A stretch of 64,000 bases of DNA from Bdellovibrionales bacterium (GCA_965205365.1 CBDBGT010000011.1:347489-411488), one strand, 5' to 3'; counted from the first letter of the stretch, positions 50,657-62,857 are shown. Made by a program: numbers and translations. The notes: generated from the sequence alone by a model not told the origin.

Positions 50657-52129
50657 CTATAAAAATGGCTCCTTTATCAAAGCCTTAAATAAGTATCTAT
50701 AAGACTTAAGTAGATTATAATCTGATTTTTTAAGAGCTTTTTTAAAGGATTTTTCCACAGGATTTCGCCTCTTTCCATTGACCTTAAATACTCCCACACC
50801 TCCTCCAGCTATTAAGCCAGCGCCTACAGCTGTAGTTTCAATATTTTTAGAGCGCATAAGCTTTAACGATGAAAGCTTAGCCTGAACCTCCATAAAAATA
50901 TCCGACATAGAAGCTCCTCCATCAATATAAACTCTTTTTAGTTTTTTTGAAACATCCTGCTCCATAGCTTCAAAAATCAATGTATTTTGAAAAGACAAAC
51001 CTTCTAATAAAGCCCTTGCCATATGAGATGCTTTTGTACCCCTTGTAAGCCCTAAAAAAGCACCCTTAGACTCTGGTGACCAGTAAGGCGCTCCTACTCC
51101 AGAAAAAGTAGGCGCAAACTTAACTCCTTGTGAAGTCTGAGCACTTAAAGCTAATTTTCCAATATCAGCAGCTTTCTTTAAAACACCCAATTCATCTACA
51201 AACCAATTGATACAAGAACCACAATTAAAGGCCCCACCCTCTAAAGCATAAACAGGTTTTTGACCTTTAAGCCTCCAGGCTACAGTAGTCAACAAACCTG
51301 ACTTTGAATAAACCAATTTATTTCCTGTGTTTAAAAGAATAAAGCTACCCGTTCCAAAGGTACACTTCACATCCCCCTCTTTAACCCCGTACTGCCCAAA
51401 AAGAGCAGCCTGCTGATCACCTAAAATACCTGTTATAGGGGTTCCATCTACCAAAGGTGCAAAGTTTTTAATGGAACCAAAATTAGAATCTGAATTGACC
51501 ACCTTTGCAAGAATATTTTCTGAAATATTAAAGTATTTTAAAAGATCTTTATCCCATTTTTGAGTTTTAATATTAAATAACTGAGTACGTGATGCATTAC
51601 TAGGTTCTGTATAAAAACTTTTTCCTCCAGTAAGATTCCAGAGTAAAAAAGTATCTATAGTTCCAACCATTAAATTTTTAGCTTTTGATTTATTATTTTT
51701 TAAAAACCATTCTATTTTCGTAGATGAAAAATACGGATCAACACTCAATCCTGTTTTTTTCTTAATCCAATTTCCATCACTTTTTTTAATCTCTTCAGTT
51801 CTTAAACTTGTTCTCCTACACTGCCAAACAATGGCGTTTCCAAAAGCTTTCCCTGTCTTAGAGTTCCAAAAAACAACAGTTTCTCTCTGATTTGTAATTC
51901 CTATTGTAAGAACATCTTTAGGATTCTTATTTGTTTTCTTAAACACCTTTTGAATAGCTTTTTTAACACTGTTTAAAATGTCTTCAGGGTTGTGTTCAAC
52001 CCATCCAATTTTTGGAAAAATTTGCTTAAAAGCAACATTGCTTAAACCAAGCACTTCCCCCTTTGTGTTCATAATCAAAGCCGTAGAGCCCGTAGTCCCC
52101 TGGTCTAAAGAAAGTATTAGGTTTTTCAT
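50657..52129 (-). CDS. glpK: Glycerol kinase
   Basis: FGGY-family motifs LDQGTTGST, GITNQRET and GDQQAALFGQ; 490 aa. Confidence 0.9.
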   Translation of the reverse strand: MKNLILSLDQGTTGSTALIMNTKGEVLGLSNVAFKQIFPKIGWVEHNPEDILNSVKKAIQKVFKKTNKNPKDVLTIGITNQRETVVFWNSKTGKAFGNAIVWQCRRTSLRTEEIKKSDGNWIKKKTGLSVDPYFSSTKIEWFLKNNKSKAKNLMVGTIDTFLLWNLTGGKSFYTEPSNASRTQLFNIKTQKWDKDLLKYFNISENILAKVVNSDSNFGSIKNFAPLVDGTPITGILGDQQAALFGQYGVKEGDVKCTFGTGSFILLNTGNKLVYSKSGLLTTVAWRLKGQKPVYALEGGAFNCGSCINWFVDELGVLKKAADIGKLALSAQTSQGVKFAPTFSGVGAPYWSPESKGAFLGLTRGTKASHMARALLEGLSFQNTLIFEAMEQDVSKKLKRVYIDGGASMSDIFMEVQAKLSSLKLMRSKNIETTAVGAGLIAGGGVGVFKVNGKRRNPVEKSFKKALKKSDYNLLKSYRYLFKALIKEPFL

Positions 52130-52330
52130 ATGTTTTTTAAGTCTACTCGCCTGGAGTGTCTAAGGCAATAGGGCCTGTTAATCCATGGATTAACTTTGTC
52201 AAAACACCTGCATTCTCTAAATCATCAATGCTTCCCCCTATAAGCTCTGATTTCATAATACTTGCCATAAAAACAGCCAAAATCATCAACAAAATATACT
52301 CTAAAACCAACTGACCACTCTGCTTTCCTC
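52028..52330. repeat. Left copy of a perfect 303-bp direct duplication flanking the DGR-bearing element
   Basis: Identical by eye to 61994-62296. It covers glpK codons 1-34, the glpK/flp spacer and 188 nt of the flp-like gene, and ends exactly at the IS terminus. Confidence 0.9.
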
Positions 52331-52355
52331 CTGACTTCGACACAACACGGCGCAT
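52143..52355 (-). CDS. Flp-type pilin-like gene, chimeric copy (5' end supplied by the IS-derived element)
   Basis: The C-terminal 62 codons are identical to the copy at 62109-62333. The first 8 codons (MRRVVSKS) read out of the 153-bp mini-IS. The G/QLVLEY (G/XXXXEY) motif is retained. Confidence 0.4.
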   Translation of the reverse strand: MRRVVSKSGGKQSGQLVLEYILLMILAVFMASIMKSELIGGSIDDLENAGVLTKLIHGLTGPIALDTPGE

Positions 52356-52483
52356 AAAGCTAATAAAATCAAGTGCTTAGATTTTGCTGGGGTCACTACA
52401 TTTCGAGTTTTAGACTTTTTAACCTTCTCTGGTGCGTATATTTGAACTCAAGAGGGGCTTTTTAACAGGAGTGTCGAAGTCAG
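52331..52483 (-). mobile_element. 153-bp transposase-less derivative (MITE-like) of the IS1634-family element, inverted relative to the full copy
   Basis: 52331-52393 is the reverse complement of 61920-61992. 52379-52483 is the reverse complement of 60129-60223. The two parts join at a single copy of the 15-nt aaatgtagtgacccc. Termini are ctgacttcgacac / gtgtcgaagtcag. Confidence 0.85.
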
Positions 52484-54465
52484 GAGCTTAGAAAATATTT
52501 TATCATTTTTTTAAATAATTAAAGAGTTTAGACCTTAATTTTCCTACTGTTTTTGTATCAAAATAAGAAAAAAACATTTCTTTAAAAACACTAAGTTAAA
52601 AATAAAGCTAAAAACCCACACTTATTACGCCTTAATATTAAATTAAGAAAAACACTTAATTTCCTTTAGTTTTTAAGCCCTTTATCCGATACATAGAGTA
52701 TAAAATATAAGAATTTATATAGGATATAACATGAAAGCTTTAACTTTATTTACAGTTTTATTATGGACGTTTTCTTCCTTGGCTGTGCCAAGTTCTTTTG
52801 TCTTTCAAGGTCAAATTATAAAGCCCAATGGAGAAGCCCTAGAAGACAATAATGTTAACTTTATTCTTAAAATCCTATCTCCCCTAAACCACTGCCTCCT
52901 CTATGAAGAAACCTTCACCCTTAATATGACAGACTCAAAGGGAGTGTTTAACCTAAGTGTAGGGTCTGGCACAACCACAGGAAATGGTGGCTTAACAAGT
53001 TTATCTAAAGCCCTAGACAATTCCTTAAACAACATCACAGGGCTTAACTGTGACTCTGGTTCCTCATACAGTCCAAGCCTCACTGACACAAGAAAACTTA
53101 GAATGACTTTTGATGACGGCAGTGGCCCCCTTACTCTAACAAATGACCACACAATTGAAAGTGTGCCCTATGCTCAGTACGCTCATAAACTTGGCGGAAA
53201 AACACTTCATGACTTTATTCAAGTCAACAGTGGTGTGACACAAAGTAATTTAGAAACTGTGTTTGATAACGGTGTAAACCAAAGAGAGCTTATGGCTTTA
53301 ATTGAGGGCCGTTCTAACCAATACTCTCCATTAAGCACTAGTGGAGCTAGTTCTTTACCGAGCTTTTCAAATCCTCCCCTTAACTCTAAGGCAGGAGATG
53401 TTTGGTACAACTCTACAACCAATGAAATCATGTACCACAATGGATCAGTAAACACCGTTGTTGGCCAAGGGAGTGGAACTGTGACCAGTATCACCACAGG
53501 AAGTGGTCTAAGTGGTGGAATCATTACAAATAGCGGTACAATTTCAATTGCCACAGGGGGTGTATTAAACAGTCACCTTCAAGGTGGTATCCATGGAAGT
53601 AAAATCACAGGAGGAGTTTTACCAGCCTCAGTGGTTCCAACAGGAACTGATGATACAAAGCTTTCTCTTCAAGGGGGAAGTTTATTAGGTGATCTTAACC
53701 TTAATGGAAATGAGGTTTTAAACACAGGTCATATTATGCAAAACCCGAGGAGTACAATGACCCTAGGTTCTTATGGGAATTTAGAAGAGGCTAGTCTTTT
53801 AGGTTCTTTGAGTGCGGGGAATGCTGGAGCCACTTGGTACAATAGTGATTCTAGGGTGCTTAAGTACTGGGACGGTAGTGGTGTAGAAGTGTTAACCACA
53901 GTGAGTGTAGGTGTATCAAGTGTTTTAGTGAGTCCCCCGTTAACTTCTTCAGGTGGTAATGATCCAAGAATAGGCATAAGCCTTGGTAGGGGTTTATACA
54001 ACAAGAGTGGAAGTGTGGAGATAGATTTAGACTCTCTTAGTGGTTTAGACTTTAATGGAAATAGGTTAAGAGTAAAAGCAGGAAGTGGTATAAGACTAAC
54101 AGGAAGTGGTATAGAGGCAGATACGGGAACGAGTTTAGGTCAGTTAATGAGAGTAGACAGTCTTCCTGTGTGCACAAGTGGGGAAAAGATTCAAAGAAAC
54201 TCTGGAGCCACAGTGACTTATTCTTGTGTGGCTGATGTAGATGAAGACACAAGTCTTTTAGGAAAATCAGCAGGAGGAGACCTTAGTGGAACTTATCCAA
54301 ACCCCATTTTAACATCAACAGGGGTGAGTGAGGGAATTTATTCAAAAGTTAGAGTGGACACTAAGGGAAGGGTAAGAGAGGGTTTAAGTTTGGACTTCCC
54401 CAAATATAGTAGACAGATTAGGAAGTTCCTATGTAGCCCTAAAAGAGGCTGAAAGGGATGAGAAA

Positions 54466-54762
54466 ATGTCAGAGAAAAGAAAACATAAACACTATAACAA
54501 AGAATTCAAAATAGAAGCTGTAAAATTAGCTGAGACAGTTGGAGTAATGAAGGCTGCTGCTGAACTAGGTGTAGCAAAAAAATCTATTCAAAACTGGATA
54601 AATGGGATCTATATGGGTGGAGCTCAATGTAAAAAGTCAAAAATGGCCGAAATGGAAGCTGAGCTTAGAAGGATTAAAAAAGAAAACAAAAACCTAAAGT
54701 TAATCAATGATGTTCTAAAAAAAAGCACTGCGATATTCTCCAAAGACCAAATTGGAGATTAG
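54466..54762 (+). CDS. IS3-family transposase OrfA (HTH)
   Basis: HYNKEFKIEAVKLA...; helix-turn-helix plus leucine-zipper-like C-terminus. Confidence 0.85.
   Translation: MSEKRKHKHYNKEFKIEAVKLAETVGVMKAAAELGVAKKSIQNWINGIYMGGAQCKKSKMAEMEAELRRIKKENKNLKLINDVLKKSTAIFSKDQIGD
54717..54723 (+). promoter_or_regulatory. A_AAA_AAA -1 programmed frameshift site for the OrfAB fusion
   Basis: Zero-frame codons are cta aaa aaa agc. The -1 frame is open from here into orfB (...KKKHCDILQRPNWRLEMILK...). Confidence 0.6.
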
Positions 54763-54764
54763 AG

Positions 54765-55634
54765 ATGATTTTAAAGTTAAAAAATCAAATGAGTGTGAAG
54801 TTTTTAGCAGAGCACTTTGGGTTGTCTAGACCTTCTTTTTATAAATGGTTGAAGCTTAGGAGTAAGTCCACATCTGGTTTGAACTCTAAAACTGAAATCT
54901 GTAAAGAGATCAGATCTATTTTTAGATCTTCAAAGCAAACTTATGGATCCCCTAGAATTTACGCTGAACTCAAAACTAAAGAGGTTTTCATCAGTGAAAA
55001 CACTGTGGCTAAATACATGGGTGAGATGGGCTTAAATGCAAGATTGAAGAAAAAATATAGAGTGATGACTACAGATTCAAACCACGCCCATGCCATAGCC
55101 CCCAGACTTTTTAAAACTGAAGATGAGCACTGTCTTCCAACAAAGCCAGGGACTGTTTTAGCTGGTGACATCACTTATTTGAAGCTCTCAAAGCACAACC
55201 ATGTCTACCTTGCTGTGGTTTTAGACCTGTACAACAGAGAAGTTGTGGGTTGGTCTATGAGCCTCTCGCTGGACACTAGAGTTGTTATGGATGCCCTCCA
55301 CGGAGCCATTAAAAAGACGAATCCAGATGCAGAGGTGATCTTCCACTCTGACCGTGGTGTGCAGTACGCGTCTGACGCGTATAGAAAGTTTTTGAGAAAC
55401 CAGAAGATCAAGCCATCAATGAGCAGAAAAGGAAATTGTTATGACAATGCTTATGTGGAGAGTTTTTTTAGTTCACTTAAGAAAGAATGGGTGTACAGAC
55501 AAAATCCTGAAACTGAAGATGCTATGAAGGCCTGTGTCTTCAATTATATTGAAGCTTGGTACAATGCAAAAAGACGACACTCATCACTTGATTATATGAG
55601 TCCATTAGATTACAGAATTAAACAACAAAAATGA
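54765..55634 (+). CDS. IS3-family transposase OrfB (DDE integrase core)
   Basis: GDITYL, HSDRGVQYAS and YDNAYVESFF (the D, D, E motifs); the stop lies in the right IR. Confidence 0.9.
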   Translation: MILKLKNQMSVKFLAEHFGLSRPSFYKWLKLRSKSTSGLNSKTEICKEIRSIFRSSKQTYGSPRIYAELKTKEVFISENTVAKYMGEMGLNARLKKKYRVMTTDSNHAHAIAPRLFKTEDEHCLPTKPGTVLAGDITYLKLSKHNHVYLAVVLDLYNREVVGWSMSLSLDTRVVMDALHGAIKKTNPDAEVIFHSDRGVQYASDAYRKFLRNQKIKPSMSRKGNCYDNAYVESFFSSLKKEWVYRQNPETEDAMKACVFNYIEAWYNAKRRHSSLDYMSPLDYRIKQQK

Positions 55635-55656
55635 ACTTCCTAATCTGTCTACTTTT

Positions 55657-57759
55657 TTGGGGAAGTCCAGTTTAGTAGAAAGTGATATACCAAATTTAAG
55701 TGGAAGTAAAATCACTTCAGGAACCATTGATACAAATAGATTAAACACAGGAACAGGGAGCAATGACCTTGTTAAGCTTGATGGTTTATCAAGGTTACCT
55801 AGTGTAGATGGGAGTCAGCTTATAAACTTACCAAGTAGTGCTGACAATATGGGAAATGGTGAGGCTCAAGAGAATATACATCTTAATGGAAATTATTTAA
55901 GTGGAGACGGTGATAATGAGGGAATTAGTGTAGATGCATTAGGAAGGGTTGGAGTGGGTAAAAGGAATCCTCAAGCATTATTAGATGTTTCTGGAAAAGT
56001 AAGGGTAGAAGAGATTTGTGATGAAAGAGGTGGAAACTGTAAGGATGTGTCAACAGGTTGGGATAGAGGGAGTGTAGGAGCAAACCAAGTGACCAACGTT
56101 CCTTTTGGAAATGTTTTAGGCACAGATGTTCAGACTGCTATTAATGAGCTTGATTCTAAAAAAGTTCCAATAACTAGAGAAATTGCAACAGTTTTAAATA
56201 GTGGATTAAGTGGAGGAGGGGATTTATCCACCAACAAGAATTTAAGTGTGGATATTCATGGAACTGTAGAAGAGAGTACAGTGAGTGATTTAGACAGTGT
56301 TTTAATCCACGATGTATCCCAAAATAGTTTAAAAAAAATAACACAGTCAAATTTTTTAAATGATTATTTTAAAGGATCTTTAGGAACCAGTTTAGGTGAT
56401 GCAATGGATGCTGGAGGTGTGCCTAGTTGTGGAGTGGATGAGAAGCTTAGAATGAGTCAAGGCCCTGTTTATTTATGGTCATGTGTGGTGGATGAGGACA
56501 CAAGTCTTTTAGGAAAATCAGCAGGAGGAGACCTTAGGGGAACTTATCCAAACCCGACTTTAGCATCAACAGGGGTGAGTGAGGGAATCTACTTAAAAGT
56601 TAGAGTGGACACTAAGGGAAGAGTAACAGAGGGTTTAAGTTTATCAGAAAGTGATATACCAAATTTAAGTGGAAGTAAAATCACTTCAGGAACCATTGAT
56701 ACAAATAGATTAAACACAGGAACAGGGAGTAATGACCTTGTTAAGCTTGATGGTTTATCAAGGTTACCAAGGGTAGATGGGAGTCAGCTTACAAACTTAC
56801 CAAGTAGTGCTGACAATATGGGAAATGGTGAGGCTCAAGAGAATATACATCTTAATGGAAATTATTTAAGTGGAGATGGTGATAATGAGGGAATTAGTGT
56901 AAACAGTGATGGTGATGTTTTTGCTTCTAGAAATATTGCTGCTGTGGGGTCTATTAGTGGATCTAGTGTTGTACTTTCAAATGGAATAAAAATAGGAACA
57001 GAGGAAACAACTTGCAATACTTTAAACGAGGGGACTTTAAGGTATAGTGAAAAGAAAATGGAATTTTGTAATGGAAACGTGTGGAGTGTTTTAGGTGTTG
57101 ATGATCCATGTCTTGATTCTTCCCCCTTGCCAGGTGCTGTGTGTAAAGGTGGAGCAATTTATCTTGGAAGCCTTAGCCCAGGTGCTACCAGTGGTAGTGG
57201 AACAGATCACTACATGACCACCCCTGGGGGTTGTGGGGACATTCCATCAGGAAGTGTTTCAGGGGGCTCGGGGTCAAATTCTTATGCATTAAATGATTTT
57301 ACAGTGACTTGTTCTGGTACTGATAGTTTATTTAAAGATTGGAATAATAATACAAGTAATTGGTATAATATTCCAGGGCTAGCAAATTACACATCAACTT
57401 GGGGAATTGGTCATGGTGAAAGTAACATAGATTTAAATTACGGTTCAGCGAATACAGATGTAATTGTTGCCATTACTTTAGAGTCTCAAGGGGGCTATCA
57501 TGCCGCAGCAAGGTATTGTCATAAGCTTGTTTATGGTGGTTATGATGATTGGCATTTACCTAACCGCTATGAGCTTAATTTAATGTACACAAATCGTTCT
57601 GCTCTTCCAGGTTTAAATCAGAGTAGTGTTAGTGGTTATTATTGGTCGTCTACGGAGAGCAGTATTCACAGTGCGTGGATCCAGCGGTTTTCTGATGGCT
57701 ATCAGTATTACGGCAATAAGCTCCATTCTCGACTTGTTCGTTGTGTACGGAGGTTTTGA
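55657..57759 (+). CDS. VR-bearing C-terminal fragment of the DGR target (DUF1566/CLec-type C-terminal domain)
   Basis: The open frame starts at a TTG inside the IS3 right IR. The C-terminus reads ...YHAAARYCHKLVYGGYDDWHLPNRYELNLMY...YWSSTESSIHSAWIQRFSDGYQYYGNKLHSRLVRCVRRF. Confidence 0.7.
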   Translation: MGKSSLVESDIPNLSGSKITSGTIDTNRLNTGTGSNDLVKLDGLSRLPSVDGSQLINLPSSADNMGNGEAQENIHLNGNYLSGDGDNEGISVDALGRVGVGKRNPQALLDVSGKVRVEEICDERGGNCKDVSTGWDRGSVGANQVTNVPFGNVLGTDVQTAINELDSKKVPITREIATVLNSGLSGGGDLSTNKNLSVDIHGTVEESTVSDLDSVLIHDVSQNSLKKITQSNFLNDYFKGSLGTSLGDAMDAGGVPSCGVDEKLRMSQGPVYLWSCVVDEDTSLLGKSAGGDLRGTYPNPTLASTGVSEGIYLKVRVDTKGRVTEGLSLSESDIPNLSGSKITSGTIDTNRLNTGTGSNDLVKLDGLSRLPRVDGSQLTNLPSSADNMGNGEAQENIHLNGNYLSGDGDNEGISVNSDGDVFASRNIAAVGSISGSSVVLSNGIKIGTEETTCNTLNEGTLRYSEKKMEFCNGNVWSVLGVDDPCLDSSPLPGAVCKGGAIYLGSLSPGATSGSGTDHYMTTPGGCGDIPSGSVSGGSGSNSYALNDFTVTCSGTDSLFKDWNNNTSNWYNIPGLANYTSTWGIGHGESNIDLNYGSANTDVIVAITLESQGGYHAAARYCHKLVYGGYDDWHLPNRYELNLMYTNRSALPGLNQSSVSGYYWSSTESSIHSAWIQRFSDGYQYYGNKLHSRLVRCVRRF
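56489..56901 (+). repeat. Copy B of the ~414-bp intragenic direct repeat
   Basis: See copy A; I counted about 18 mismatches over ~414 nt. Confidence 0.8.
57642..57751 (+). repeat. DGR variable region (VR)
   Basis: Gap-free 110-nt alignment with TR. There are 13 mismatches, all at TR adenines. The VR lies in the last 39 codons of the target ORF. Confidence 0.9.
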
Positions 57760-57800
57760 GGCCTGAAAGGGCTCATTAGCTCTTTAGCCCTTTAGTTCTT

Positions 57801-57835
57801 TTATCTTAAGGAGGCTTTAAGCCTCCTTAAGATAA
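57801..57835 (+). terminator. Perfect 16-bp-stem hairpin 42 nt downstream of the target stop codon
   Basis: ttatcttaaggaggct-tta-agcctccttaagataa. There is no clear T-tract, so it could be a terminator or the DGR target-site hairpin/cruciform. Confidence 0.45.
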
Positions 57836-57895
57836 AATTATTTAATTTTAGAGACGCGTTGAGTAAATTAAAAATTATTTACATAGCGATACTTT

Positions 57896-58303
57896 ATGAT
57901 AAAGAAAGCTGTGGCAAAATATAAACATTTACCAATTTATAAATTAACTTATGAGCTTTTAGGCAGAGTGATAAGGGTAGTGAAAAAATTCCCCAGAGAT
58001 CATAAACATACTTTAGGTGAAAAAATTAAAGTCGAAATTATAGAAATTGTAGTTTTAGTTTATAGAGCAAATGCTTCACACAGTCGAGTATTAATTATTG
58101 AAAAATTAATTGAAAGTTTAGAAGTTGTGGGTTTATTAATGCGTGCTAGTTATGACCTTAGAATCATTTCACAAAAAGATTATGCTAGTCTTATAGAAAT
58201 GACGGAGTCTATAGGTCGCCAAGCAATGGGCTGGAAAAAATCTGAATTTAAAAAAGAAGGAAAAAACTTAACTGGGGGAGGTAGCCAGAGTTATTTATCT
58301 TAA
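57896..58303 (+). CDS. avd: DGR accessory variability determinant (Avd), four-helix-bundle family
   Basis: 135 aa and helical, with a basic C-terminus. HLPIYKLTYELLGRVIRVVKKFPRDHKHTLGEKI resembles the Avd / 23S-rRNA-IVS protein family. It lies between VR and TR. Confidence 0.8.
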   Translation: MIKKAVAKYKHLPIYKLTYELLGRVIRVVKKFPRDHKHTLGEKIKVEIIEIVVLVYRANASHSRVLIIEKLIESLEVVGLLMRASYDLRIISQKDYASLIEMTESIGRQAMGWKKSEFKKEGKNLTGGGSQSYLS

Positions 58304-58483
58304 GGGATAAGTAAGTGAGTGACTTTCATCTCGGGATAGACACGGTTGGAATTTATTTTCACCCTATATCTTTGATCAATTGTTAAAATTATTCATTGAC
58401 CCCATTAGTGTGTCTTTTATAAGGGGTATTTTTGGGATAAGCAGTTGTCTATCGCAAACTCGATGTTTGCCATGAGTCCTTGC

Positions 58484-58593
58484 TTGGTCGTCTACGGAGA
58501 ACAATAATAACAATGCGTGGATCCAGCGGTTTTCTGATGGCAATCAGAATAACAACAATAAGAACAATTCTCGACTTGTTCGTTGTGTACGGA
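58484..58593 (+). repeat. DGR template repeat (TR)
   Basis: Non-coding copy of VR with 35 adenines. In the VR frame it reads WSSTENNNNNAWIQRFSDGNQNNNNKNNSRLVRCVR (12 AAY codons). Confidence 0.9.
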
Positions 58594-58647
58594 AGTGAAG
58601 CCTCCTCCAGTTTTTTTTATGAATTTTAATATAAAGGTGAAAACTTT

Positions 58648-59781
58648 GTGTCAAATATGGAATTAAGTTTTGAAGAAGTAGTTAAGGCTTACTTTAATTG
58701 TCGAAAAAACAAAAGAAATACAGTTCATCAGCTAACGTATGAATTTTGTTTAGAACAAGAATTATTTGATCTTTATCAAGATCTTAAAAAAGGCACCTAT
58801 AAAATTGGACCAAGTGTAGCTTTTGTTGTGGATCAACCAAAGGTTCGAGAGATTTGGGCTGCAACTTTTAGAGACAGAGTTGTTCATCACATTATTTATA
58901 ATCGTTTGTCATCGAGTTATTATAAGAGGTTTATTAGAAACTCTTTTGCATGTATTCCAGGAAGAGGAACTCTTGATGGATCAAACCGGTTGATGAAGGG
59001 TATGCAGTCAATTACTAAGAATTGGCAGAAGCCCGCTTACTTTTTGTCAGCAGACATTAGAAATTTTTTTGTATCAATTAATAAAAATATTTTATGGAAC
59101 ATTCTAAGTCCAAATATTCAAGAAGAATGGTTAAGAGATTTAACTCATCAGGTTTTATTTCATGATCCAAGACTAGGTTGTATTAAGAAATCTAATGATT
59201 TTGCTTTTGCAAGAGTTCCTAAATATAAAAGCCTTTGGAACTGTTGTAAGAATAAAGGCTTGCCCATAGGTAATCTAACGAGCCAGTTTTTTGCAAATGT
59301 TTATCTTAATGAACTTGATCAATTTTTTGTTCATCACAAAGGTTTTGGAAAATATTATTTTCGTTATGTAGATGATTTTATTATTTTAAATGAATCTGTG
59401 AACCAGCTAAATGAAATGCATAAAGAAGCTGGATTTTTTCTTAAAGAAAAATTAGATTTGGATTTACATCCTTATAAAAAACAAATTGGGCTAGTTGCTC
59501 AAGGTGTTTATTTTGTTGGTTATGTTAACAAACCTTATAGAAGATATGTTAGAAAAAGAACAATAAATAAGGCAATGAGTGTTACTCGTCAGTGGAAAAA
59601 ATCGCTACACCCGTATTCAGAAGAATCTTTAAAAAAGCTACGAGGATCAATAAATGCATATATGGGAATTATGAAATGGGCACATAGCTACAAGGAACGT
59701 AAAAAACTTGTTCAAAAAACTACGAATCTTTATGTAAGACCTGAAAATGAAAATTATTTAAAGATTAAGATTTTTTGCTGA
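58648..59781 (+). CDS. DGR reverse transcriptase
   Basis: RT motifs LSADIRNFF, LPIGNLTSQFFANVYL (the DGR-type [IL]GxxxSQ motif), YFRYVDDFIIL and GVYFVGY. It starts 55 nt after TR. GTG start with an AAAGGTGA SD; an alternative ATG lies at 58657. Confidence 0.9.
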   Translation: MSNMELSFEEVVKAYFNCRKNKRNTVHQLTYEFCLEQELFDLYQDLKKGTYKIGPSVAFVVDQPKVREIWAATFRDRVVHHIIYNRLSSSYYKRFIRNSFACIPGRGTLDGSNRLMKGMQSITKNWQKPAYFLSADIRNFFVSINKNILWNILSPNIQEEWLRDLTHQVLFHDPRLGCIKKSNDFAFARVPKYKSLWNCCKNKGLPIGNLTSQFFANVYLNELDQFFVHHKGFGKYYFRYVDDFIILNESVNQLNEMHKEAGFFLKEKLDLDLHPYKKQIGLVAQGVYFVGYVNKPYRRYVRKRTINKAMSVTRQWKKSLHPYSEESLKKLRGSINAYMGIMKWAHSYKERKKLVQKTTNLYVRPENENYLKIKIFC

Positions 59782-59789
59782 TGTTACGC

Positions 59790-60128
59790 ACCTAGGCTTA
59801 AATAAAGGAGAGTTCCTAAGCTTCACTATGACCCCAGGAAACGTTCATGATACAAAGCCTTTAGAGAATCTTGCAGATGGTTTGTTTGGAAAGCGGAGAT
59901 AAGGGATATATCTTAAAAGAACCTCTTTAAAAAACTTATGGGCAAAGGTGTTTAAGTTGATTACTCATTTAAAATCAAATATGAAAAATAAGTTTGTACC
60001 ACTTTTTCATAAACTTTTACTGAGAAAAAGATATATTGTTGAGACTGTTTTTAGAATTTTAAAGGAAGAGTTTCATATTGAACACTCAAGACACCAAAGT
60101 CTTAAAAAACTTTATAGTGAATCTTTTC
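59790..60128 (+). pseudogene. IS982-family transposase C-terminal remnant (frameshifted, truncated by the IS1634-family element)
   Basis: FTMTPGNVHD..., GDKGYI (in another frame), LITHLKSNMKNK and LLLRKRYIVETVFRILKEEFHIEHSRH. It needs at least two frame changes and has no ends. Confidence 0.5.
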
Positions 60129-61992
60129 CTGACTTCGACACTCCTGTTAAAAAGCCCCTCTTGAGTTCAAATATACGCACCAGAGAAGGTTAAAAAGTCT
60201 AAAACTCGAAATGTAGTGACCCCTTTTTTTTCTTTACAAGTATTTTTAGGCTAGTAATTTTAATAGCCATGTTTATTCGAGAAGTAAAAAAACCAAACGG
60301 AAGTGTTTCAATTAGAATAGTTGAATCTACTCGAGTAAAAAATAAAGTTATTCAAAAAGTCATTAGAACTCTGGGACAACACAAGGATGCAAGAGAAATA
60401 GCCATTATTAAGAAAGCAGCACAGGACTTAATAATAGAGCTAAAAAACACAAGAAACCCAGCCCTTCCTGGAATGGAAGAAACTGTGCACTCCACGACTT
60501 GCACAAAAAAAGCCAGCACAAGAAACCCAGAGCTAGTGGATATAAAGAATCTATCTGAGCAAGGTCGTGTTAACCAAGGCATTCACACAGTTTTAGGCAA
60601 AGTTTATAATCAAATGAACTTTAACGATATCATAAAAAACACAAAAAAAGATGATGAGTGGAACTCTATTCTTCAAGATTGTGTTTTAGCAAGAATCTCT
60701 AGGCCGCAGAGTAAAAGAAAAACAGCAGATAGCTTAAAAAAAGTTTTCTCAAAACCCCTTCCTCTTCATAAGATATACCGTATGATGGACAGAGTTTTTC
60801 TAAACGAAGAAAGACTAAAATCAAAAGTCTTAAATTCCACTCTAAACCTTTTTAATGACCAGGTTGACGTTATGTTCTTTGATGTCACAACGCTATATTT
60901 TGAAAGCTTTACTTCAGATGAACTTAGAGCCAATGGTTTTAGTAAGGATGCTAAGTTTAAAGAAACTCAAGTTGTTCTCGCCTTGGTTACAAACTCACAG
61001 GGACACCCAGTAACTTATGAGCTTTTTCCTGGCAACACTTATGAGGGCAACACATTAATAGAGATAGTTAAAAACTTAAAAACCCGTTTTAATGTAAATC
61101 AAGTTACCCTTGTGGCTGATAGAGGTATGTTTAATGAGGCAAACTTAGTTTTACTAGAAGCTGAAAACATTCATTATATTGTGGGGGCTAAGTTAAAATC
61201 TTTACCAAAGAATTTAAAAGAAGAAATCTGTCATAAAAACTTTAAACCCCATGTGGTGAGCAATGAACTGCAGTGGGTTAGAGAGTTTGAGCACAAGAAA
61301 AGAAGGCTTGTTGTTGGGTATTCTAATAAAAGAGCTTATAAAGATGCATTTGACCGGGAAAAGATAATTGTTCGTCTTTTAAAGAAAGCCAAAGATGGAA
61401 AACTTAAAGCAAGTGACCTTATAACTAATTATGGAACGAAAAAGTACCTTAAGTCTTTTAAGGGGGATGTAGAGGTTGATAAGTGTAAGATTAGTAGAGA
61501 CGCTCAGTGGGATGGTTTTCATGGTGTCATTACAAATCTTGAAGACAAGTCTGCAGCTGAAGTTTTAGAGCGTTATAGAGGGCTGTGGAAAATAGAACAA
61601 GCGTTTAGAATAAGTAAGACAGATTTAAAGATGCGACCTATTTTTCATTGGAAGTCTGAGAGGATTAAGGCTCATATTGGAATTTGTTTTCTAGCATATG
61701 CAATTGTTTGTAGAGTAAATAAGCTTATTAAGGAAAACCAATTAGAGTTTAGTTTTTTAGATCTTAAAGAGGAGTTAAATAGAGATGAGTACAGTGTTTT
61801 AAAAGACTCTAGTACGGGGCGATTTTATGAGCTTGTATCTAAGACTACTCCTGTTTTAAAGAAAATTTACCAAGTTTTAAACCTTAAGAGAAAGGACTGT
61901 ATTCGCCTAGTTAAAGAGCAAATGTAGTGACCCCAGCAAAATCTAAGCACTTGATTTTATTAGCTTTATGCGCCGTGTTGTGTCGAAGTCAG
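60129..61992 (+). mobile_element. IS1634-family insertion sequence (1864 bp)
   Basis: Terminal IRs are ctgacttcgacac (60129-) and gtgtcgaagtcag (-61992). A single 552-aa transposase gene is present. An internal 15-nt direct repeat aaatgtagtgacccc lies at 60209-60223 and 61920-61934. Confidence 0.8.
60269..61927 (+). CDS. IS1634-family (IS4-related) DDE transposase
   Basis: N-terminus MFIREVKKPNGSVSIRIVESTRVKNKVIQKVIRTLG; DDE motifs FFDVTTLYFES, LVADRGMF and YRGLWKIEQAFRISK. Confidence 0.75.
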   Translation: MFIREVKKPNGSVSIRIVESTRVKNKVIQKVIRTLGQHKDAREIAIIKKAAQDLIIELKNTRNPALPGMEETVHSTTCTKKASTRNPELVDIKNLSEQGRVNQGIHTVLGKVYNQMNFNDIIKNTKKDDEWNSILQDCVLARISRPQSKRKTADSLKKVFSKPLPLHKIYRMMDRVFLNEERLKSKVLNSTLNLFNDQVDVMFFDVTTLYFESFTSDELRANGFSKDAKFKETQVVLALVTNSQGHPVTYELFPGNTYEGNTLIEIVKNLKTRFNVNQVTLVADRGMFNEANLVLLEAENIHYIVGAKLKSLPKNLKEEICHKNFKPHVVSNELQWVREFEHKKRRLVVGYSNKRAYKDAFDREKIIVRLLKKAKDGKLKASDLITNYGTKKYLKSFKGDVEVDKCKISRDAQWDGFHGVITNLEDKSAAEVLERYRGLWKIEQAFRISKTDLKMRPIFHWKSERIKAHIGICFLAYAIVCRVNKLIKENQLEFSFLDLKEELNRDEYSVLKDSSTGRFYELVSKTTPVLKKIYQVLNLKRKDCIRLVKEQM

Positions 61993-61993
61993 G

Positions 61994-62095
61994 AAAAGCA
62001 ACATTGCTTAAACCAAGCACTTCCCCCTTTGTGTTCATAATCAAAGCCGTAGAGCCCGTAGTCCCCTGGTCTAAAGAAAGTATTAGGTTTTTCAT
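61994..62095 (-). pseudogene. Duplicated 5' fragment of glpK (codons 1-34)
   Basis: Part of the 303-bp duplication. It reads MKNLILSLDQGTTGSTALIMNTKGEVLGLSNVAF, then runs into the IS end. Confidence 0.85.
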
Positions 62096-62296
62096 ATGTT
62101 TTTTAAGTCTACTCGCCTGGAGTGTCTAAGGCAATAGGGCCTGTTAATCCATGGATTAACTTTGTCAAAACACCTGCATTCTCTAAATCATCAATGCTTC
62201 CCCCTATAAGCTCTGATTTCATAATACTTGCCATAAAAACAGCCAAAATCATCAACAAAATATACTCTAAAACCAACTGACCACTCTGCTTTCCTC
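61994..62296. repeat. Right copy of the perfect 303-bp direct duplication
   Basis: Identical by eye to 52028-52330 and begins exactly at the IS terminus. Confidence 0.9.
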
Positions 62297-62333
62297 TACC
62301 CTTATTCTTTTTGCTTTGACCCCTTAAAAACAT
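62109..62333 (-). CDS. Flp-family (type IVb/Tad) pilin-like small protein, intact copy
   Basis: MFLRGQSKKNKGRGKQSG|QLVLEYILLMILAVF: a basic leader, the G/XXXXEY processing motif and a hydrophobic helix. The track ORF extends to 62396, but the Met at 62333 is more plausible. Confidence 0.45.
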   Translation of the reverse strand: MFLRGQSKKNKGRGKQSGQLVLEYILLMILAVFMASIMKSELIGGSIDDLENAGVLTKLIHGLTGPIALDTPGE

Positions 62334-62350
62334 AAGAATAGTCTTACCCT

Positions 62351-62857
62351 GTGAAAATATACGACTGGAAGTACCTTGGTAAAATTGTTGCATCAATTGC
62401 CCTATCGGTCATTATTGGTCTTTTCTGGATATTAACTACTCAAAAAAACCCTGAAATCACAAAAAACCCTCATAAATTCAACTTAGGTAGTGTTTTTGCT
62501 AAACACCTTACAAATAGAACTCTAGTAATTTTTTGGGCTAGCTGGTGTGCCTCTTGTCAAGAGGACCTTAAAAAACTTAAAAAATTTCAAGCTTCTAATT
62601 TACCAAAAGATTTTAGTATTCTAGCTATTAACATTGATACCATGGAAAAATTACCTGAAGCAAAATTTCTATGGAATAAGCTAGAAATTAAAGACATTAA
62701 ACTTTTATTTGATAAAAACGGAGACTATCAAAATCTCTTATCTATTAACGTTCTACCCTCTTACTTCTTATTTGAAAAAAATGGAAAAATCCTTTTAAGG
62801 CTAGATGGAAAAGTAGACTTTTCAGATAAAAAAATACTCTCTCTCCTATTTAGTTAA
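62351..62857 (+). CDS. TlpA/redoxin-like membrane-anchored thiol:disulfide oxidoreductase
   Basis: N-terminal TM and a thioredoxin fold with FWASWCASCQ (CxxC). GTG start. Confidence 0.7.
   Translation: MKIYDWKYLGKIVASIALSVIIGLFWILTTQKNPEITKNPHKFNLGSVFAKHLTNRTLVIFWASWCASCQEDLKKLKKFQASNLPKDFSILAINIDTMEKLPEAKFLWNKLEIKDIKLLFDKNGDYQNLLSINVLPSYFLFEKNGKILLRLDGKVDFSDKKILSLLFS

Follow-up and report, generated by a model that had tools for sequence, protein, structure and literature searches.

A stretch of 64,000 nt from a Bdellovibrionales bacterium (GCA_965205365.1, CBDBGT010000011.1:347489-411488), referred to here as the window, contains a diversity-generating retroelement (DGR) composed of a variable repeat (VR) at the 3' end of a fibre gene, an avd gene, a template repeat (TR) and a reverse transcriptase (RT) gene. 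The element is a canonical DGR, of a kind already known; DGRs are textbook elements of which thousands have been catalogued, and the added interest lies in the target and its context rather than in the retroelement itself. It is considered highly probable that this DGR hypervaries the tip of a fibre of the mosaic adhesive trimer (MAT) type, that an insertion sequence (IS) of the IS3 family interrupts the fibre gene, and that fibre and retroelement form a cassette which is bracketed by IS1634-family elements and present in several copies in the genome.

The repeat pair and the retroelement proteins

VR and TR align without gaps over 110 nt (57642-57751 against 58484-58593) with 13 mismatches, found in VR at 57659, 57662, 57665, 57667, 57671, 57700, 57706, 57709, 57712, 57713, 57721, 57722 and 57724. 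Over this length TR consists of 35 A and 75 non-A positions, and its base is A at all 13 sites (P = 5.6e-8 by the hypergeometric distribution for 13 random mismatches all to fall on A). Realignment reproduced exactly the coordinates and mismatch sites given in an earlier note on this DNA, which had been made from the sequence alone, and a recount returned its figures of 13 of 35 TR adenines and 0 of 75 non-A positions changed. The repeat extends 3 nt further, to 57754 and 58596, adding one A-to-G mismatch; the full 113 nt hold 14 mismatches, all at TR adenines, comprising six A>G, five A>T and three A>C changes. Translated in the target frame, with codons counted from 57643, TR reads WSSTE-NNNNN-AWIQRFSDG-N-Q-NNNN-K-NN-SRLVRCVR, in agreement with the 12 AAY codons, 11 of them recoded in VR, that had been claimed. 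All 13 changes of the 110-nt alignment are confined to positions 1 and 2 of AAY codons, where 13 of 24 adenines are altered, compared with 0 of 10 adenines elsewhere. The 14 A-site differences are a record of past mutagenic homing; the repertoire of 15^12 variants put forward in the earlier note is a theoretical ceiling. No second VR or further copy of the TR pattern occurs within the 64-kb window.

At the 3' end of the repeat is a 27-nt block in which the adenines are unmutated, and the similarity of VR and TR ends directly after it; this block is a candidate for one resembling the initiation of mutagenic homing (IMH) sequence. The region that follows VR contains an imperfect hairpin with a TGAAA loop (57757-57775), which overlaps the target stop codon, and a perfect 18-bp stem with a T-rich tail (57799-57837). 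The evidence for them is a DNA fold with a z score of -8.7 and a terminator scan, and a hairpin is present within a few tens of nt after VR in five of five relatives examined.

The accessory variability determinant, Avd, was described earlier as the product of a 135-aa Avd-like gene between the repeats; this is borne out by matches to Pfam bAvd (E 2e-16, 60.9 bits, over the cut-off of 40) and to PHROG 3206 'Avd protein of DGR' (E 8.6e-28). No sequence match to Avd was found in the PDB.

The RT gene was likewise called correctly as a 377-aa frame with IGNLTSQ and YVDDF motifs. It opens with GTG 55 nt after TR, with AAGGTG 8 nt upstream of the start; the public gene call begins at ATG 58657 and gives 374 aa. 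The protein is full length relative to its homologues, with IGNLTSQ at residues 207-213 and the catalytic YVDD within YVDDF. DGR RTs display the signature [I/V/L]GxxxSQ, whereas group II and retroviral RTs have QGxxxSP; the adenine mutagenesis is promoted by Arg74 and Ile181 of bRT, the enzyme of Bordetella phage BPP-1 (PMC7826257). R67 and I207 of the window RT correspond to R74 and I181 of bRT when the protein is aligned to its best PDB match, 8ub7_A (E 3e-29, 105.6 bits), a reverse transcriptase of 328 aa; this entry is taken to be bRT because Ile181, by its numbering, is the first residue of IGSLTSQ, in line with the published bRT sequence. The match to PHROG 1423 (phage RT) has an E value of 1e-95. 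Among annotated proteins, RTs of Pseudomonas, Burkholderia and Shewanella phages come closest, with 43-46% identity, and Bordetella phages are also matched; an RT on Legionella pneumophila plasmids is 37.7% identical, and no close relative was found among the IMG/VR viral contigs. The order target-avd-TR-RT, which the earlier note had likened to mtd-avd-TR-brt of BPP-1, holds for all four components.

Relatives of the RT with 37-63% identity were used to sample 82 loci, which were searched for repeats by self-BLAST; a pair was counted when at least 80% of its mismatches were at adenines of one copy. A-biased pairs of the TR/VR type lie beside the RT in 57 of the 82 loci. A profile search of genome contigs with the RT alignment gave relatives of at most 48% identity among the matches listed, which included neither the source genome nor the clade of about 60% identity; the wider RT family is that of DGRs. 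The closest loci (L001, L002, L083, L084, L086 and L094), several of which are named Bdellovibrionales, have RTs 59-63% identical to that of the window, and the architecture is conserved in them; all six have a large Lcl_C protein, bAvd, TR and RT in this order, and their TRs share the scaffold WSSTE-N5-AW.QRFSDG-NQ-N4-K-N2..RCVR. Differences between TR and VR in the closest loci fall on adenines in 16 of 17, 12 of 12, 16 of 19 and 12 of 15 cases, the last with a 3-nt indel. The target in L083, from another Bdellovibrionales lineage, combines MAT_N (E 3e-30), Lcl_C and the DGR. Downstream of metagenomic tips 59-67% identical to that of the window lies avd, and one of these loci continues with TR and RT.

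Several of these loci have peculiarities of their own. VR and TR differ by a 3-nt indel within the AAY run in L002 (8902-9017 and 9838-9950) and L086 (3052-3179 and 7845-7970). In L086-L088, from JGI sample 3300028842 and related samples, avd and RT are separated by ~4.4 kb containing an AbiEi/AbiEii toxin-antitoxin pair, a helix-turn-helix gene, a DUF4143 gene and partial duplicates of the avd 3' end. One metagenomic contig has two related Lcl_C tips in tandem (L090, 4751-6292), and on another a tip is followed directly by a new gene beginning with a MAT_N domain (L091, 1510-2454); together these two arrangements suggest arrays of such fibre genes.

The structured RNA between avd and TR

The 180-nt spacer between avd and TR contains a structured non-coding RNA element which was recognised by covariation. 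It is formed of a long-range helix (58333-58342 with 58446-58455), a pair of internal hairpins and one more hairpin at 58454-58470. The alignment used for the test consisted of seven loci with GC contents of 31-54%, and slid pairing partners and 500 shuffles served as controls. The element has 26 predicted pairs in three helices, for which 91% of cells are paired compared with 31-50% in the slid controls; 15 pairs show compensatory changes, and none of the 500 shuffles was as good. The long-range helix is 100% paired and includes four covarying pairs. Apart from one truncated independent match, a covariance model of the element has all its matches within this RT clade, and it gave none in 80 more distant DGR loci, a set outside which BPP-1 lies. 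No Rfam family matches the element, nor did Rfam return anything relevant in 52000-62500; the element is previously uncatalogued. On the other side of TR, a conserved pyrimidine-rich GAAGCCTCYCC follows the repeat at 58597-58610.

The target fibre gene and its genomic context

The target of the DGR is predicted to be a chromosomal MAT-family fibre, not a phage protein. VR is carried by an open reading frame (ORF) of 700 aa (55657-57759) that starts with TTG inside the right end of the IS3 element; the earlier note called this the target ORF, but it is not a complete gene, being the 3' remnant of a gene for 1248 aa that IS3 has split. The IS3 element has TG...CA ends, inverted repeats of roughly 30 bp and a flanking 3-bp duplication, GTT, at 54388-54390 and 55670-55672; with the element and one GTT removed, 52731-54390 is joined to 55673-57759 in a single open frame of 1248 aa. 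The insertion looks recent because the 3-bp duplication is perfect and the gene is otherwise open. Due to the split, this allele probably makes no anchored fibre; the description of the DGR as 'complete' therefore stands for the retroelement itself and fails for the target.

The N-terminus of the joined protein matches NCBIfam NF053851 Bdello_MAT_N (E 5e-48, 162.9 bits, cut-off 60) over residues 9-166, a model described as 'mosaic adhesive trimer family chimeric fiber protein'. The shaft has a repetitive, mosaic make-up. Internal direct repeats within it (55669-55932 with 56638-56901, and 54237-54391 with 56488-56642) are 93-97% identical and 969 nt apart, and bracket an extra 323-aa module that is absent from the paralogs P0125 and P0134 described below; the pattern fits the mosaic build of the fibre family.

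The C-terminus of the target matches Pfam Lcl_C (DUF1566; E 3.5e-15). In an AlphaFold model of the last 120 residues, the predicted local distance difference test (pLDDT) score is 76 for the whole and 82-93 for the VR part, and the predicted template-modelling (TM) score is 0.74; an earlier model of a 207-aa tip, from a 6-sequence alignment, was poor (pLDDT 46). The best fold match of the tip is the C-terminal domain of Legionella Lcl, 8q4e (E 4e-6, TM 0.54-0.59), which is also matched by sequence profile (E 6e-12), and is followed by snake C-type lectins and then by the MAT tip of Bd2740, 8oks (E ~0.04, TM 0.46-0.54). The variable residues are placed in loops and strands of C-terminal β-hairpins, and VR is modelled at the C-terminus of a C-type-lectin-like ligand-binding domain. 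The system would most likely serve to hypervary the ligand-binding tip of a fibre for surface adhesion, plausibly one that recognises prey.

Further copies of fibre and retroelement are present in the same genome. An identical RT (P0001) and an identical Avd (P0122) are each encoded on two contigs, and with an RT variant that has an altered N-terminus (P0121) there are at least two further RT copies in all. Two paralogous MAT/Lcl_C fibres are intact, P0125 (926 aa) and P0134 (929 aa), both with MAT_N, and two are truncated, P0124 and P0126. The intact paralogs are 96-98% identical to the window protein over its N-terminal 646-661 residues (646-666 of the paralogs). The tips of both differ from that of the window chiefly where AAY codons template them. 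Within VR, P0134 and the window protein agree at 22 of 25 non-AAY positions and at only 2 of 12 AAY-templated ones; in this protein-level comparison the pattern appears as expected from DGR diversification. P0125 has one extra codon in the region of the AAY run.

The cassette of 9,666 bp ends on its left in a miniature IS1634-family element resembling a miniature inverted-repeat transposable element (MITE), and on its right in a longer IS1634-family element (Table 1). The 157-bp miniature is the reverse complement of 60127-60223 joined to 61935-61994, and the 15-bp terminal inverted repeats TCCTGACTTCGACAC occur at 52329, 52485, 60127 and 61994 only. The transposase matches NF033559 transpos_IS1634 (E 1.6e-106, 357 bits), and at least seven near-identical variants of it are found on several contigs of the genome. 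Outside the elements lie two 300-bp copies of 100% identity, in the layout repeat, element, repeat; the duplication leaves one intact copy each of glpK and of the neighbouring small gene, and is read as a target-site duplication, as IS1634 and IS1549 are known to generate duplications of 8-514 bp (PMC2266710). Insertion of fibre and DGR as a composite-transposon-like unit is the simplest reading, and it would also explain the multiple cassette copies in the genome. The cassette seems to have spread within the genome as such a unit, because of the bracket of IS1634 element and miniature, the 300-bp duplication, the identical Avd and RT elsewhere and the paralogous fibres. Next to the RT gene, a fragment of an IS4/IS5-type transposase gene abuts the stop codon and is itself cut by the IS1634-family element.

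Table 1. Features of the cassette and its flanks, in positions of the window
Feature	Coordinates	Strand	Description
Left 300-bp direct repeat copy	52028-52327	.	glpK 5' end, spacer, 3' part of small gene
IS1634-family miniature (MITE-like)	52329-52485	-	157 bp, inverted; left end of cassette
Target gene, 5' part	52731-54390	+	Sec-type signal peptide (by inspection), MAT N-terminal domain, fibre shaft
IS3-family insertion in target	54391-55669	+	orfA 54466-54762, orfB 54765-55634; HTH_Tnp_1 and rve
Target gene, 3' part	55673-57759	+	Shaft with extra 323-aa mosaic module; C-terminal Lcl_C (DUF1566) tip
VR	57642-57754	+	113 nt, ungapped against TR; spans the last 37 sense codons but one of the target gene
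Hairpins 3' of VR	57757-57837	+	Candidates for homing hairpin and/or terminator
avd (accessory variability determinant)	57896-58303	+	135 aa, isoelectric point 9.85, Pfam bAvd
Structured non-coding RNA element	58328-58476	+	Covariation; in 180-nt avd-TR spacer
TR	58484-58596	+	RT-proximal, adenine-bearing copy; 12 AAY codons in VR frame
DGR reverse transcriptase	58648-59781	+	RVT_1; 377 aa from GTG
IS4/IS5-type transposase fragment	59783-60126	+	Degenerate 3' end; DDE_Tnp_1_3, profile positions 106-154 of 155
IS1634-family insertion sequence	60127-61994	+	Transposase 60269-61927; right end of cassette
Right 300-bp direct repeat copy	61994-62293	.	Truncated second glpK start (ORF 61943-62095)

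The window also encodes MutS2, Lnt, HemC, OppA and GlpK and has a GC content of 32.7%. A phage or prophage location was considered and rejected; the window has chromosomal genes, and phage structural genes were not observed around the cassette. Relatives of MutS2 have identities of 86-56%, followed by a gap to ~41%, and all the named ones are Bdellovibrio, Pseudobdellovibrionaceae or Bdellovibrionales; from such sequence relationships the host is placed as an uncultured, divergent low-GC member of the Bdellovibrionota.

Mechanism, alternative explanations and known systems

If the element works as in BPP-1, an RNA that covers the avd-TR spacer, TR and the short spacer between TR and RT would be bound by a complex of RT and Avd and copied to cDNA with random misincorporation opposite template adenines, and the mutagenised cDNA would then replace VR. 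The outcome would be the rewriting of at most 12 AAY-templated codons within the last 38 residues of the target, in which a stop codon would never be created. A wider proposal is that Bdellovibrio-like bacteria use DGRs to hypervary the tips of MAT prey-recognition fibres, that an IS1634 composite transposon multiplied the cassette to give several independently diversified fibres, and that an RNA domain of the clade's own upstream of TR may replace or complement the downstream spacer RNA of BPP-1; this proposal is tentative, and the balance is judged to lie somewhat against it.

Several observations weigh against the reading of the locus as a DGR that diversifies a MAT fibre tip within a mobile cassette. 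Avd scores 58.9 bits against the NCBIfam equivalog DivGenRetAVD, under the cut-off of 80; the tip model comes from a shallow alignment of six sequences, and the TM-scores of its fold matches are modest (0.46-0.59). Two of the P0134 differences (A/V and S/F) are at positions not templated by adenine, so that either P0134 has its own, differing TR or there has been no recent homing. The perfect 300-bp repeat could in principle be an assembly artefact. MutS2 is only ~41% identical to that of Bdellovibrio, and predation by the host is a presumption. Finally, the genome is IS-rich, with two fibres truncated and the target interrupted, and this copy may be decaying.

This last point leads to the strongest alternative, in which the DGR is decaying and inactive and VR is a frozen record of former tip diversification in an IS-ridden genome. 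In its favour are the knock-out of the target gene by IS3, the IS fragment against the RT stop codon with the eroded 3' flank, and the truncated fibres P0124 and P0126 and RT variant P0121; furthermore, the loci L084 and L085, the sole pair of samples sharing an RT, are identical and thus show no population variation, and an exact 27-mer from the invariant middle of TR and VR is absent from the JGI metagenomes. However, the frames of RT and Avd are intact with all catalytic and signature residues present, 12 of 12 AAY codons of TR are intact, and the RNA element keeps every helix despite a shift to 36% GC. The IS3 insertion also looks recent, and homing, if it proceeds as in BPP-1, would need cis elements at VR and not expression of the target. 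A relic is therefore considered unlikely, if still a serious contender, and the element may yet be active.

A second alternative holds that the RT belongs to another class (a group II maturase, a retron, an Abi enzyme or a defence RT of the DRT type) and that the Avd-like gene and repeats are coincidental. The best NCBIfam match is indeed a group II intron RT/maturase, with no DGR RT model among the matches of that scan; PADLOC gives moderate matches to generic RT, UG4 and UG17 models, and some homologues are named 'retron-type' or 'group II intron RT' in databases. These NCBIfam matches, however, are far under their cut-offs (98.8 bits against 300 for group II; 44 against 200 and 43.6 against 235 among those to Drt, retron and AbiA), those of PADLOC are generic or partial only, and Rfam finds no intron RNA or retron non-coding RNA. 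The motif is IGxxxSQ rather than QGxxxSP, and the match to bRT is ~70 bits above that to any group II intron RT in the PDB, which score at most 36 bits. Clustering with group II, retron or Abi RTs, set beforehand as refuting a DGR, was not seen by bits, by motif or in the TR/VR pairs carried by the relatives, and this alternative is very improbable. The last, that TR and VR are an ordinary 3'-end duplication diverged by chance or gene conversion and unrelated to the RT, draws on the repetitive, mosaic fibre family and the other long direct repeats of the region, but is effectively refuted by differences that are 14 of 14 at adenines of the RT-proximal copy (P ~6e-8), by a TR that is non-coding, reads as poly-Asn in frame and is 55 nt upstream of the RT, and by the same arrangement in 57 of 82 loci of RT relatives.

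The element has much in common with the DGR of BPP-1. Besides the gene order, the two share adenine-specific differences confined to AAY codons, a VR at the extreme 3' end of a C-type-lectin-like fibre-tip gene, a basic Avd, and an RT with IGxxxSQ and equivalents of R74 and I181; the unmutated block at the 3' end of the repeat and the hairpins beyond it are candidate counterparts of those in BPP-1. The fibre of BPP-1 is a trimer, while that of the window is known from sequence. In contrast to BPP-1, the element is on a bacterial chromosome rather than in a phage, the tip is by sequence of the Lcl_C/DUF1566 rather than the Mtd type, and the RT has 377 aa compared with 328. The non-coding RNA is a further difference. 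In BPP-1 the key non-coding segment (Sp) is downstream of TR, binds Avd and primes cDNA synthesis (PMC6182149); here the structured element is in the avd-TR spacer and only ~55 nt separate TR from the start of the RT, and therefore the RNA layout differs. An RNA domain upstream of TR could inform how RT and Avd are recruited by DGR RNAs outside the BPP-1 model.

DUF1566 targets make up category 'd' (CLec2) of DGRs, 14% of those catalogued, with Legionella as an example (Wu et al. 2018, PMC5758913). As in the window, VR of the Legionella pneumophila DGR overlaps the DUF1566 (Lcl_C) domain of its target LdtA; however, LdtA is a short lipoprotein, whereas here the DUF1566 tip caps a fibre of ~1250 aa with a MAT N-terminal domain. 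The combination of MAT_N and DUF1566 is not among the architectures quoted for category 'd' (PMC5758913). For the mobile context, the closest comparison is with IS1634 and IS1549, which share the transposase family, 15-bp inverted repeats and a duplication of which the 300 bp seen here are within the 8-514 bp reported (PMC2266710); the cassette departs from such insertions and from composite transposons in that a miniature of 157 bp with an internal deletion forms one of its ends, and in that it carries a DGR together with the target. Such cargo suggests a route for intragenomic amplification.

The MAT fibres on the surface of B. bacteriovorus combine an N-terminal domain that does not vary with a trimeric shaft and with adhesive tips that can be swapped (Caulton et al. 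2024, PMC10769870), and were proposed in 2024 as the means by which Bdellovibrio recognises many kinds of prey (PMC10769870). The window fibre shares with Bd2740 and other MAT fibres the conserved MAT N-terminal domain, a mosaic length of ~1000 aa and a non-S74, C-type-lectin-like tip; the likeness to the Bd2740 tip is at the level of fold only (E ~0.04, 11-15% identity). According to the authors, the trimerisation mode of the Bd2740 tip is shared only by Mtd (PMC10769870). The text and text supplements of that paper contain neither DGR nor DUF1566, apart from DGR in the title of the Mtd reference, and full-text searches of one library of papers found none linking DGRs with MAT fibres, Bdellovibrio, Bdellovibrionota or predatory bacteria in this sense. 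The arrangement of fibre and DGR is present in several copies in this genome and in at least one other Bdellovibrionales lineage (L083). In strain HD100 the diversity of fibres is put down to a set of 21 genes and to 'tip swapping' (PMC10769870); here, by contrast, a retroelement would hypervary one tip. With a DGR acting on a MAT tip, a cellular predator would gain a programmed means of hypervarying its recognition of prey or surfaces. If true, the tropism switching of phages would have its counterpart in a cellular predator.

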